The position numbers were made by a program, and so were the translations under genes. The notes under the pieces are model-generated. The model saw only the letters and a program-made list of their open reading frames with translations. It made no database searches and was not told the origin of the DNA. From Escherichia coli (lineage in GTDB: Bacteria; Pseudomonadota; Gammaproteobacteria; Enterobacterales; Enterobacteriaceae): a stretch of 64,000 nt of DNA. The stretch lies in NCBI RefSeq assembly GCF_044324875.1, contig NZ_CP172185.1. One strand, written 5' to 3'. Positions 9,445 through 46,463 of the stretch are shown here, piece after piece. How positions within the stretch are numbered: position 1 is the stretch's first letter; each line of letters begins with the position of its first letter.

Positions 9445-9550
9445 TGCCGGATACGGTGCACCTGTAGGCCTGATAAGACGCATCAAGCGTCGCATCAGGC
9501 ACTATGCTCAAATGCCGGATGCGGCGTAAACGCCTTATCCGGCATACACA
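9445..9550. repeat. REP/BIME cluster
   Basis: GCCGGATACGG...TGTAGGCCTGATAAGACGC...GCGTCGCATCAGGC...GCCGGATGCGGCGTAAACGCCTTATCCGGC units between yjgA and mpl. Confidence 0.85.
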
Positions 9551-15699: not shown

Positions 15700-15805
15700 A
15701 GGCATGATAAGACGCGGTAAGCGTCGCATCAGGCTTCAGTGCACCATCGCCGGATGCGGCGCGAGCGCCTTATCCGGCCTACGAATCGGCATCAGGCATA
15801 GCAAC
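15700..15805. repeat. REP/BIME cluster
   Basis: GCATGATAAGACGCGGTAAGCGTCGCATCAGGC ... GCCGGATGCGGCGCGAGCGCCTTATCCGGCCTACG units between ytfR and ytfQ. Confidence 0.85.
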
Positions 15806-25332: not shown

Positions 25333-25509
25333 AGTATTTCATTTATCAGCAGTCTGAATTTTAACCCTCTGGCGGCTTTACAGTACCTTACGCTATACTA
25401 GCCACTGAAAATGCCGGTTCACTTTCTTCGAATCGGCTTTCAATGTGTATTTCACACAAATTAATCAACTTCCCCTTCCGAGGATCTGGCCTGAAAGGTC
25501 GGATAAGAT

Positions 25510-29953: not shown

Positions 29954-30142
29954 TTCTCCACCTCGTCTCTGTGAGCGGTGTTAACTTATTGTTTTACTTA
30001 TACCCTATCGTTAATGAATGCGCCAACTGTGATAGTGTCATCATTTTCAAAGCGTAAAATTGTGGCATTCTTCACTGTTCTATAAGTAAGACGTTTATTC
30101 TCCCTTTTCTTTCGTATTCCCGATGATAAAAGGATGTCCCTG

Positions 30143-40786: not shown

Positions 40787-41425
40787 ATGCCCGGGCGCTT
40801 TGAACTAAAACCAACCCTGGAGAAAGTCTGGCACGCGCCGGACAATTTTCGCTTCATGGACCCGCTGCCGCCGATGCATCGTCGGGGGATCATTATTGCC
40901 GCCATTGTATTGGTGGTCGGATTTCTGCTTCCATCTGATGATACGCCCAACGCGCCAGTGGTGACGCGTGAAGCGCAGTTAGATATTCAGTCGCAATCAC
41001 AACCGCCGACAGAAGAACAGCTGCGGGCGCAGCTAGTTACGCCACAAAATGATCCTGATCAGGTGGCCCCGGTCGCTCCAGAACCTATACAGGAAGGCCA
41101 GCCAGAAGAGCAGCCGCAAACTACCCAAACGCAACCATTCCAGCCAGATAGCGGAATTGATAATCAATGGCGCTCTTACCGTGTCGAACCCGGTAAAACG
41201 ATGGCGCAGCTGTTCCGCGACCACGGACTGCCCGCTACCGATGTCTATGCAATGGCGCAGGTAGAAGGCGCGGGTAAGCCGCTGAGTAATTTGCAAAACG
41301 GGCAGATGGTGAAAATCCGCCAGAACGCCAGCGGCGTGGTGACGGGCTTAACCATTGATACGGGGAATAATCAACAGGTCCTGTTTACCCGCCAGCCGGA
41401 TGGCAGTTTTATTCGTGCGCGGTAG
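40787..41425 (+). CDS. ytfB: OapA-domain cell-division protein YtfB
   Basis: 212-aa product [48 protein letters not shown]... (membrane anchor, Pro/Gln-rich linker, OapA C-terminus). Confidence 0.92.
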
Positions 41426-41499
41426 ATGAAGGGTCAACCAAAAGCCAGCTAAGGATTGTCTCTTTGATGACCTTACGTCTGGCTTCCAGTGCCTGAGGT

Positions 41500-41720
41500 G
41501 AAACCATACTGATATGTTGACATCCTCCACGCCCTGAAGGACGTGGATCCCTGCTACGTTCAGGCTGTCGCCTAAATCATTTCGGGGGGTTCCTGCTTCA
41601 ACGAGCGGCCTGACTGCACCATCTCTCCACAGGCAAGAACGGCGTGCCCCGCCGCTAAAATGTTACGAGCGCCATTTACATCGGCGTTCGCTGTATATCC
41701 ACATGCCTGGCATCTGAATT
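41500..41720 (-). ncRNA. Predicted omega (re)RNA of TnpB, overlapping tnpB 3' end and right end of the IS; putative guide = flank just beyond RE (about 41501-41516)
   Basis: Inference from established TnpB biology (guide RNA derived from tnpB 3' end/RE); presence of RE hairpin at 41527-41546. No transcript evidence. Confidence 0.35.
41527..41546. repeat. IS right-end subterminal hairpin
   Basis: 5-bp + 2-bp stem with single mismatch and TGAA tetraloop; near-identical copy at other end of element. Confidence 0.7.
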
Positions 41721-42768
41721 TACTTTGTGACAGGCGATTTTCTTTCGCTGTATGACCACAGCACGCGCAACGCTGGCTTGTGTACGCTGGCGGAACAGCA
41801 AGCACCTGACCGCCACGCCAGAGCTGCTTGTACTCAAGCTGGCGGCGCATTTCATACCAGCCCTGATCCAGTATCGAACGGTTTAAACCTGATTTTGCCC
41901 GGACATTGCGCCCCGGCTGGCTGACCGTACCCGCTGCTGACTTTGACATGTTGCTGACCTTCAAATCCTCAATGACTATCATTGCGTGGTTTTTGCTGAC
42001 GGTCGTTGTGACTTTGTGAAGGTAGTCCCTGCGGATATTTGCGATACAGGAATGCAGTCGCTGTATTTTGCGTTTCTGCTTCTGCCAGTTATTGCTGAAT
42101 TTGACCTTGCGGCTTAACTGTCGCTGAAGTCTCGCCAGCTTCTTCTGGTTTTTCTGAAAACTGTTTACAGGCTCAAAGACTGTGCCATCTGACAGCGTGG
42201 CGAGTTTAGCCACGCCAGCATCCAGCCCGACCATTGATGCTGAAGGGTGAACCGGAGTTGATACTTCATTTTCAGTCTGAATACTGATGTACCACTTACC
42301 GCAGGACTGGCTGACAGTGACATTTTTCACAACACCCGTGACCTGACGGCTATTCCGGTAGCGCATCCAGCCAAGTTTCGGCAGAAAAATACGGCTGTTT
42401 TCCTGATCGAGCTTAACGCCCTGCGGGTAGCGGAATGCATCATTCTGTCCCCGCTTTTTGAATCGGGGAAAAGCAGCCCGCTTCTGGAAGAAGTTTTTGT
42501 AAGCCCGCTCAAGGTCTTTCAGTGACTGTTGCAATGGCTGTGAGGGCGAATCTTTAAGCCATTGCGTTTCAGTGGCGTTTTTCCACTCAACCAGCCAGGA
42601 AGCCATTTTCCCGTAAGGGATGTATTTATTACCGGCCTCATGATTCTCATTCTGACGTGCCAGAGCACGATTGAAAACGAAACGACATGCGCCTGCGAAG
42701 CGCCTCATTTCACGCTCCTGTTGACCACCGGGTCTTAACTGGAATTTAAATGCCTGTAGTCGTTTCAC
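41572..42768 (-). CDS. tnpB: TnpB (IS605 OrfB) RNA-guided endonuclease, apparently intact
   Basis: 398-aa [39 protein letters not shown]...; RuvC-I D (MVGLDAGV), RuvC-II E (MIVIEDLKV), Zn finger CACCGH...CQACG and RuvC-III D ([10 protein letters not shown]) all present. Confidence 0.92.
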
Positions 42769-42775
42769 AGGCCAA

Positions 42776-43390
42776 ATGATACTTTGGTCTGTGAGAAAAG
42801 AAACCGATATCCGGCGTGGAAGGCATTGTGTTTTCCTGATGCATGTTCACCAGGTCTTTGTCACCAAATACCGACGTCAGATTTTTGACCATGACGCGAC
42901 AGAAAAACTACGCACTTACTTTTCAAATGTATGTGCTGATTTTGAAGCTGAACTGGTTGAAATGGATGGCGAACCAGATCACGTCCATTTGTTAATTAAC
43001 TATCCTCCCAAACTGGCGATATCCAGTCTGGTAAACAGCCTCAAAGGCGTATCGGGTAGGTTACTGCGACGAGATCGACCAGATATTGCAGTCAGGTATT
43101 ACTACAAAGGCGTTTTGTGGAGTCCTGGCTATTTTGCCAGTAGCTGCGGAGGTGCGCCAATATCCGTCATCCGCCAATACATTGAACAACAGCAAACACC
43201 TGATCAGGTGGAAAACCGCGCCTTATATCCCCGCCCTGAAGGACGGGGTTTTACGGCGCACCGGATAAACCAGGCCAAGCGTATGCTGGTTGATCAAATA
43301 ATATCCCCCAAGCGCAGCAATATTAATATTCACCTGCAATGGGTCGATATCTGGCTTAAAAATATTGTGTTTCCTCCCTTCATCCAATAA
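42776..43390 (+). CDS. tnpA: IS200-type Y1 (HuH) transposase TnpA, ORF reading through the IS left end into flanking DNA
   Basis: ORF contains KYRRQIF, HuH motif HVHLLI and catalytic-Tyr region [11 protein letters not shown]...QYIEQQ; typical TnpA ends soon after, but here no stop occurs until 43388-43390, beyond the end hairpin (which encodes [10 protein letters not shown]). Confidence 0.8.
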
Positions 43391-43483
43391 GGATTCCATT
43401 AACTGCAAGTGCGCATGATTAATTTCTAAGAGACACTGTGATTTTGCATAATGCACACCTTTACTTTGGTTTTCACTATGCAC
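43223..43483 (-). pseudogene. ytfA-like ORF, 3' end replaced by IS-end sequence (possible TetR-like C-terminal fragment)
   Basis: 86-codon frame from GTG 43481-43483 ([73 protein letters not shown]...) runs into the IS hairpin ([13 protein letters not shown]). Identity with K-12 ytfA is from position and memory only. Confidence 0.5.
43239..43258. repeat. IS left-end subterminal hairpin
   Basis: CCCCGCCCTGAAGGACGGGG, same architecture as 41527-41546. Confidence 0.7.
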
Positions 43484-43832
43484 AATTTTTAAAAACCAGG
43501 GATTAGCAATATAATAATCCCAGGTAAAATCGATGATTTTTTCAATGGCTTTTTGTGGCTGGTTAACCTGCTGATTAACAAACGCACCGATACCGACAGC
43601 GTAGAATAATTACATACCGCACAACAAGAATGTATGGTGTAAGGCGTTGTCAGTCATCTCCCTCCCTGGGTGCATCGTTATATCCGTGATGAGCGATTTT
43701 TGATATTAATATCTTTCACCATCCGCTATTTTCACTACTTCAGAAAACAAACTTATTTTTATTAATATCGATTCTTTTTCTTTGAGCATTTAACTACGAT
43801 ATTTATAAAAAAATTAAACAGGCAAAAATACA

Positions 43833-45741: not shown

Positions 45742-46155
<414 letters not shown>

Positions 46156-46463
46156 TTATTCAGCCTCCTGTCTGGGTCAGCCGAATCCCGGGGAGGCAAG
46201 GAACGTGTTAAAGGTCGGCTGAAAAATGACGCGTTATAGTACTGACATACCCCGCTAAACTCAAGGCCAGCCGACAAATAAATCTCATCTTTCACCAAAT
46301 CGTACTAACACGCTGATTTGAAGTTCATCACACTTCATCATGGTGTTTTTTTGAACAACTGCATCAGAAATGGTCACCATCAACTTCTTTATCATTGATT
46401 AAAATTAAATCAGAAGATCATCACAGAGGAGAGCACACAAAGTCAGCCGTTGAGGAGGTATCT

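Follow-up and report, generated by a model that had tools for sequence, protein, structure and literature searches.

The tnpB-tnpA junction of IS609 as a candidate compact bidirectional promoter

An IS609 copy inserted in ytfA

The window analysed here is a stretch of 64,000 nt of an Escherichia coli chromosome, in which an insert lies between ytfB and yjfZ in the gene order fklB-ytfB-yjfZ-rplI. The insert is IS609, an IS605-type element of the IS200/IS605 family; its DNA is about 98% identical to the IS609 copies named as such in RefSeq and to the mobile_element IS609 of MG1655, which is also 1748 bp long. The element and its main features are the following:

41517-43264, minus strand: complete IS609 (IS200/IS605 family, 1748 bp), in ytfA, its top strand being the minus strand of the window
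41517-41690, minus strand: candidate omega-RNA scaffold, overlapping the tnpB 3' end and the right end of the element
41527-41546, minus strand: right-end subterminal hairpin CCACGTCC-TTCA-GGGCGTGG, the element terminus being ...GATGTCAA(C)
41572-42768, minus strand: tnpB (insQ-type RNA-guided nuclease), 398 aa, with a GTG start at 42766-42768
42791-43390, plus strand: tnpA (Y1 HUH transposase) from the family-conserved start, GTG here and ATG in relatives
43229-43248, minus strand: left-end subterminal hairpin CCCCGTCC-TTCA-GGGCGGGG, preceded by the target TTTAT in the flank

Aligned with an empty site (L004), the insertion proves precise and follows TTTAT (minus strand), with a 1-nt boundary ambiguity and no target duplication, and other IS609 copies are likewise preceded by ...TTAT. 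The hallmark of the IS200/IS605 family, subterminal imperfect hairpins at the two ends without terminal inverted repeats, is present: the two hairpins are near-identical, each with an 8-bp stem, one T.G mismatch and a TTCA loop. IS609 is carried by about 4,900 of 5,426 complete E. coli genomes; it occupies the ytfA site in about 1,700 genomes and leaves it uninterrupted in about 3,200. Since it is also found at several chromosomal sites and on plasmids, the element has been mobile in the past. In the window, ytfA, a TetR/AcrR-family gene, is split into two pieces (41409-41516 and about 43265-43591, both minus strand), which PGAP names partial regulator and hypothetical protein.

The TnpB protein contains the RuvC motifs LDAG, IEDL and NADVN and the zinc-finger cysteines, together with the Pfam domains OrfB_IS605, Cas12f1-like_TNB and HTH_OrfB_IS605, and it matches the NCBIfam model guided_TnpB with an E value of 3.5e-116. 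It is 398 aa long here and 402 aa long both in a copy at the ytfA site (L002) and in one at the K-12 site (L003), the C-terminus (41572-41586, minus strand), beside the guide-RNA region, being the part that differs. TnpA matches Pfam Y1_Tnp (E 3e-41) and NCBIfam transpos_IS200 (E 3e-42), and its HUH motif (DHVHLL) and tyrosine (RQYIEQQ) are conserved in an alignment of relatives (A1). The tnpA stop codon is TAG in relatives and CAG in E. coli IS609, so that the ORF ends at 43388-43390, within ytfA DNA. Over 43197-43390 (plus strand) tnpA thus reads through the left-end hairpin, and its C-terminal tail varies by insertion site.

By analogy with known TnpB elements, the tnpB 3' end and the right end of IS609 probably encode an omega-RNA scaffold that is not captured by any Rfam family. 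No Rfam family reached its threshold inside IS609, and the matches at 41504-41687 (minus strand) were sub-threshold: HgcC (25 bits against a threshold of 50), sot0042 (18 bits against 88) and RAGATH-18. Elsewhere in the window, above-threshold Rfam matches correspond to ES239 sRNA, the RpsF leader, two naRNA4 copies and STnc450, at 30020-30142 (minus), 46135-46219 (minus), 9467-9544 (minus), 15701-15779 (minus) and 25391-25448 (plus).

Start codons of tnpB and tnpA

A sequence-only reading of this DNA had described tnpB and tnpA as divergent genes with ATG starts only 7 bp apart. For tnpB, the start codon is in fact GTG, which appears as CAC at 42766-42768 on the plus strand, and it is the earliest possible start 3' of the upstream stop. 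Judging from the protein alignments we consider this start secure, because Pfam HTH_OrfB_IS605 aligns TnpB residues 1-48 with profile positions 1-47 and the NCBIfam TnpB models begin at residues 4-7. In tblastn alignments, TnpB residue 1 pairs with an ATG start codon in all relatives.

The situation of tnpA is different. On the plus strand, the CAC triplet is followed by AGGCCAA (42769-42775), ATG (42776-42778), ATACTTTGGTCT and GTG (42791-42793), and the ORF that runs from 42776 to 43390 holds the Y1 transposase domain. The 7-bp gap between the two longest ORFs is real: in records of identical E. coli sequences PGAP draws the boundaries at these positions, and the gap recurs in the curated record of MG1655, with yncK starting at 1503649 and insQ at 1503657. 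The ATG at 42776 exists as had been claimed, but it is not the start used by the family, the conserved start lying 15 nt downstream at 42791-42793:

42776-42778, plus strand: annotated tnpA ATG, specific to the E. coli lineage, where a T-to-G change in the promoter core turned ATTATACT into ATGATACT

Evidence for the downstream start comes from 80 related loci, collected from a species-representative genome set and analysed with tblastn and scripts, among which about 65 distinct elements, with TnpA proteins 60-93% identical, share it. The codon equivalent to 42776 is ATT, TTA, TGA, AAT, TCA or AGT in relatives, and at the equivalent of 42791 nearly all loci have an ATG, GTG being confined to Escherichia. 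Homologous TnpA proteins of Proteus, Photorhabdus, Klebsiella, Yersinia and others are 138 aa long, their first residue corresponding to codon 6 of the E. coli ORF, and translation from the conserved ATG gives 137-138 aa in 64 of 70 loci. In many loci the five extra codons lose the frame, the spacers being 21, 22 or 23 nt long, or contain a stop (TGA). Calls of a 146-aa tnpA from an upstream ATG within CATG were set aside as an artefact of the palindromic CATG at the tnpB start.

The suspicion that one of the two starts is internal was thus well founded, homologues placing the tnpA start five codons downstream. The same alignments do not restore a conventional intergenic region, the gap between the conserved starts being only 22 nt, and the remark that there is no room for such a regulatory region between tnpB and tnpA stands.

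The 22-nt spacer and the sequences around it

The spacer between the conserved start codons, with the sequences that flank it, contains the following elements:

42769-42790, no strand assigned: spacer between the conserved start codons, 22 nt, proposed bidirectional promoter core
42776-42781, minus strand: predicted tnpB -10 box, TATCAT, 7 nt from the tnpB GTG
42778-42783, plus strand: predicted tnpA -10 box, GATACT (TATACT or TATAGT in relatives), 7 nt from the canonical start
42784-42790, plus strand: TTGGTCT, a non-coding heptamer adjoining the tnpA start and invariant as TTGG(T/C)CT in all related junctions
42754-42759, plus strand: tnpA -35-like hexamer, CTGTAG (TTGnAG in relatives), in tnpB codons 4-6, 17-18 bp from the -10
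42766-42793, no strand assigned: 11-bp inverted repeat found only in IS609, CACAGGCCAAA-TGATAC-TTTGGTCTGTG, enclosing both GTG codons

Measured from the tnpB CAT to the tnpA ATG, the spacer is 21 nt long in 16 distinct junctions, 22 nt in 27 and 23 nt in 20, which makes 63 of 67, counts that represent non-independent events since the loci share ancestry. Being this recurrent, the head-to-head layout is not due to chance, and prophage-borne copies have it as well. Hosts in which the module is intact include Pusillimonas sp. T2, Janthinobacterium sp. CG3, Serratia plymuthica and Proteus mirabilis. The family arrangement can be written CAT-N7-ANTATANT-TTGGYCT-ATG or, from an alignment of 53 junctions (A2), CAT-N7-A.TATA.T-(C)TTGG(T/C)CT-ATG. 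In relatives, the N7 next to the tnpB start varies freely. The core 8-mer, A-N-T-A-T-A-N-T, forms a -10 hexamer on each strand, 6-8 nt from the start codons, with the TATA common to both. Among 59 distinct spacers, the minus strand reads TATAAT in 30 and is one mismatch away from it in the others, 6-7 nt before the tnpB ATG, and the plus strand reads TATACT or TATAGT 7-8 nt before the tnpA ATG. In A2, the core columns that do not vary, or hardly do, are exactly positions 2 and 6 of both hexamers, the positions that are most critical for -10 function (bioRxiv 10.1101/2020.01.31.928960).

A minority variant class with a spacer of 45-46 nt (L075, L084, L101, L109, L110, L112, L115) has separated rather than overlapping promoters: these loci keep the tnpA-side TATACT-(C)TTGGYCT-ATG and have a distinct -10-like box beside the tnpB ATG. 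One junction, on a 2-kb contig labelled 'Streptomyces mutabilis' (L012, NZ_BMTT01000064.1), is almost identical to that of Proteus mirabilis L031, and this contig is probably an assembly contaminant.

The sequence-only reading had further placed the promoter and the ribosome-binding site of each gene inside the other gene. For the promoters this is borne out in that parts of them reach into the neighbouring gene, -35-like hexamers lying in tnpB codons 4-6 and tnpA codons 3-5. No ribosome-binding site is found inside the opposite gene, both starts lacking a Shine-Dalgarno sequence and having -10 boxes 6-8 nt away. The tnpB -35, a TTGTCA-like hexamer on the minus strand 17-18 bp from its -10, is found only in non-enterobacterial relatives, enterobacterial ones matching at just 2-3 of 6 positions. 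On the tnpA side, the TTG is TnpB codon 5 read on the other strand, a glutamine codon that is CAA in 60 of 64 junctions; CAA accounts for only 29% (404/1,387) of the other glutamine codons of these genes. The bias reflects a constraint at the DNA level.

Promoters were also sought with a blind generic scan over 1.5 kb in three relatives, which returned exactly two sites in each, both at the junction, where shuffled sequences lead one to expect 0.4-0.6. The tnpB-ward site, TTGTCA-17/18-TATAAT, has 11 of 12 matches and the tnpA-ward site, TTGAAG or TGGAGA-17-TATACT, has 9 of 12. Applied to 65 loci, the same rule found correctly placed sites in 33 on the tnpB side and in 24 on the tnpA side, for a background of 0.18 sites per kb and strand. 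In IS609 itself the scan found no promoter at the junction, because the -35 boxes of this element are poor.

In the MG1655 genome, 1503657 is the first position of the insQ GTG, and TATCAT ends 7 nt before it. The thrL start site, which we use as a point of reference, is presumably position 148. Among its entries, Supplementary Data 2 of a SMRT-Cappable-seq study, a method based on 5'-triphosphate ends, gives position 1503656 on the forward strand as the start site of the b1432 (insQ) operon and position 147 as that of thrL (PMC6131387); judging from thrL the table may be 0-based, and under both conventions the insQ leader is 0-1 nt long. The same data list a read-through ydcL-insQ transcript in K-12 (PMC6131387). 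For the tnpA direction (yncK), the supplements of the Cappable-seq and SMRT-Cappable-seq studies and of the Warman preprint, as far as they were searched, list no start site. The position of the insQ 5' end, the -10 boxes 6-8 nt from the start codons and the lack of Shine-Dalgarno sequences all point to leaderless mRNAs. The IS609 tnpB mRNA is thus leaderless, starting where the predicted -10 box would place it, and its translation would be leaderless as well; from the spacing of its own -10 box, the tnpA mRNA would be leaderless too.

Set against the family consensus, the copy in the window is a degraded version of the module. Both tnpB and tnpA begin with GTG where the consensus has ATG; the core reads ATGATACT in place of ATTATACT, the T-to-G change resulting in GATACT and TATCAT and weakening both -10 boxes; the tnpA -35 begins with CTG, not TTG; and tnpA has lost its stop, TAG having become CAG. 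Two Escherichia sp. loci (L005, L006) represent intermediate states of this decay. The 7-bp gap is therefore a consequence, for annotation, of decay in the IS609 lineage and not an ancestral design. Leaderless GUG starts are poorly translated in E. coli, which makes protein output doubtful: for the copy in the window it is probably low, whereas transcription of tnpB and its putative guide RNA is documented.

Two other hairpins were noted near the junction. RNAalifold finds a 3-4 bp hairpin, GACC-N4-GGTC, in tnpB codons 12-15 (42721-42735, columns 4-13 of A2), with GC/AU covariation at one pair (24 versus 18 sequences), which may be a by-product of the coding sequence. A terminator-like hairpin at 42752-42772 was rejected, being an unconserved, E. 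coli-specific sequence without a T tract.

A proposed bidirectional promoter, its alternatives and known systems

We propose, with a probability of about 0.65, that a compact bidirectional promoter, its -10 boxes overlapping, occupies the junction and produces two leaderless mRNAs, and that this promoter is conserved in the family and degraded in IS609; the tnpA half of this model we infer. The junction would be the regulatory centre of the element: sigma-70 -10 hexamers on opposite strands would share the TATA, the -35 hexamers would be supplied by the first codons of the opposite gene, and RNA polymerase would bind in one orientation at a time, the two orientations excluding each other because the -10 boxes have four base pairs in common. 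Transcription would begin at each start codon or at most 1 nt from it, giving two leaderless mRNAs, and if start sites and start codons coincide in this way neither gene would need a Shine-Dalgarno sequence, a design that would suit an element present in many bacterial classes. The tnpA start site, leaderless translation of both mRNAs and competition between orientations are predictions of the model. As the two boxes overlap by 4 bp, mutual interference of tnpA and tnpB expression, already suggested by the sequence-only reading, is plausible. Bidirectional promoters whose -10 elements overlap form an established class that is enriched in horizontally acquired DNA and in which the orientations of RNA polymerase are mutually exclusive (bioRxiv 10.1101/2020.01.31.928960; PMC12825309), and competition between orientations matters only if one direction is strongly activated (PMC12825309).

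The invariant TTGGYCT heptamer lies outside this simple promoter model. By inspection, it is not a Shine-Dalgarno sequence, its GG being just 3 nt from the ATG and the heptamer not being complementary to the 16S 3' end, and it offers no consistent match to an IHF site, a LexA site, a TnpB target-adjacent motif with protospacer or a second -35. It is tempting to speculate that the 22-nt module is a conserved orientation switch that directs the element either to mobility (TnpA) or to retention or homing (TnpB with its guide RNA), in which TTGGYCT would be the site of a factor or an element that sets the start site and biases RNA polymerase; in IS609, where the heptamer would have been copied to the tnpB side, the switch would be mutationally locked down. 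We regard this extension of the model as improbable.

The reading closest to the annotation, in which tnpA would start at the ATG at 42776, with a true gap of 7 bp and with conventional promoters and leaders deep in the opposite gene, is in our opinion very unlikely. This ATG is the choice of PGAP as well as of the curated MG1655 record, and it is the only in-frame one near the tnpA 5' end, the canonical codon being GTG here; it arose after the canonical ATG had become GTG (L005 combines ATT with GTG) and could be a compensatory new start, and the K-12 read-through from ydcL to insQ means that the junction is crossed by transcripts. However, the ATG is missing from nearly all relatives, where broken frames and TGA codons make the five extra codons non-coding. 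It also lies inside both -10 boxes, and would thus be absent from the transcripts that these would start; a weak AGG, 4 nt away, is all that precedes it; and the mapped primary 5' end of tnpB is at the start codon and not within tnpA. A more serious contender, to which we give somewhat less than even odds, is that the junction is a relic: tnpA would be a pseudogene whose start is irrelevant, only tnpB and the guide RNA being expressed, from the half of the promoter that is left or by read-through from ytfA, whose strand is also that of tnpB. In all the IS609 copies examined, tnpA carries a pseudogene flag from PGAP, and decay of its stop, with an ORF that leaves the element, of its start and of its -10 and -35 hexamers goes in the same direction, as does the presence of IS609 at the identical ytfA site in about 1700 genomes; the copy in K-12, which is interrupted by an internal stop, did not transpose once in mutation-accumulation lines (PMC2891674, PMC5009759). 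On the other hand, the copy in the window has an intact HUH motif and catalytic tyrosine and no internal stop, a C-terminal extension need not inactivate TnpA, and the distribution of IS609 over chromosomal sites and plasmids testifies to past movement. Moreover, a relic in IS609 is compatible with a bidirectional promoter in the family rather than opposed to it.

The inverted repeat at 42766-42793 could itself be functional, either as a hairpin that hides the start codons in transcripts coming from outside or as a symmetric operator for a dimeric repressor; we consider this doubtful, the odds being well against it. Its RNA folds better than shuffled sequences, with -20.4 kcal/mol on the plus strand (z -4.1, 0 of 200 shuffles as good) and -13.9 kcal/mol on the minus strand (z -2.6), and its tnpB-side arm has become steadily more complementary to the heptamer, from AGGTTAA in the Escherichia sp. 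loci L005 and L006 to AGGTCAA in K-12 and AGGCCAA in this copy. Read-through transcripts do exist in K-12, and transcripts begun at the start codons would be without the 5' arm of the repeat. Yet the repeat was noticed post hoc and is not conserved: with RNAalifold, 53 plus-strand and 31 minus-strand sequences gave no conserved RNA structure at the junction, and the z score is about 0 in L008 and L045. Moreover, the repeat could have arisen by a single quasi-palindrome template-switch mutation, or through the tnpB discriminator converging on TTGGYCT. Convergence on a favoured discriminator, a fold-back hairpin, a repressor operator and a template-switch mutation are the candidate readings of the repeat.

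TnpB elements, the ancestors of Cas12, are the object of intensive study. The literature searched on IS609, on insQ/ydcM and on leaderless or divergent promoters in IS605 elements nevertheless contained nothing on a promoter at this junction, and nothing was found in it on the balance between transposase and nuclease/guide RNA expression in divergent IS605-type elements. The element, the promoter type and leaderless mRNAs are each of a known kind; their combination as a conserved control module of an IS clade appears to be undescribed in that literature. If the proposed promoter is real, 22 nt without a ribosome-binding site would explain expression in hosts of different phyla as well as the inconsistent annotated N-termini of TnpA (138, 143 and 146 aa), and would show where mutation could uncouple tnpA from tnpB expression. 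In practice, what the window gains is a corrected tnpA start, together with evidence of decay in this copy.

The closest known system is the K-12 copy of IS609 (yncK/insQ), which shares with the copy in the window about 98% nucleotide identity, the length of 1748 bp, the 7-bp annotated gap, the GTG starts, the end hairpins and a TTAT-type target. The K-12 copy lies at ydcL-ydcO and the other in ytfA; unlike in K-12, tnpA in the window has no internal stop; the spacers are one base apart (AGGCCAA in the window, AGGTCAA in K-12), the window having the better inverted repeat; and TnpB has 398 aa rather than the 402 aa of K-12. A parallel can also be drawn with IS200 and IS10, in which RNA hairpins limit transposase expression by sequestering the start site and by protecting against outside transcription. 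By analogy, the IS609 inverted repeat could sequester the start codons in read-through RNA. Unlike those hairpins, it is not conserved in its family, and neither an antisense RNA nor a sequestered ribosome-binding site is evident.

The promoters described by Warman et al. (Grainger laboratory) resemble the IS609 junction in having pseudo-symmetric -10 hexamers on opposite strands with bases in common. The predicted start sites of the IS609 family are about 21-24 bp apart, which falls within the published definition of 7-25 bp (bioRxiv 10.1101/2020.01.31.928960; PMC12825309); the hexamer offset of 2 that corresponds to 21-24 bp is near, though not equal to, the commonest published classes of 18 and 23 bp. 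Unlike in those promoters, the predicted start sites coincide with start codons, which would make both mRNAs leaderless; bacteria of different classes share the module as a conserved unit within a mobile element, and it includes an additional invariant heptamer not foreseen by the published model; and start-site evidence concerns one direction only, that of tnpB. Finally, insQ resembles classical leaderless mRNAs such as lambda cI transcribed from PRM and Tn1721 tetR, which start at the initiation codon or 1 nt before it, have no Shine-Dalgarno sequence and have a -10 about 7 nt upstream. Where IS609 differs from lambda cI and Tn1721 tetR is in its GTG starts and in what would be two leaderless genes placed back to back on a single core promoter.
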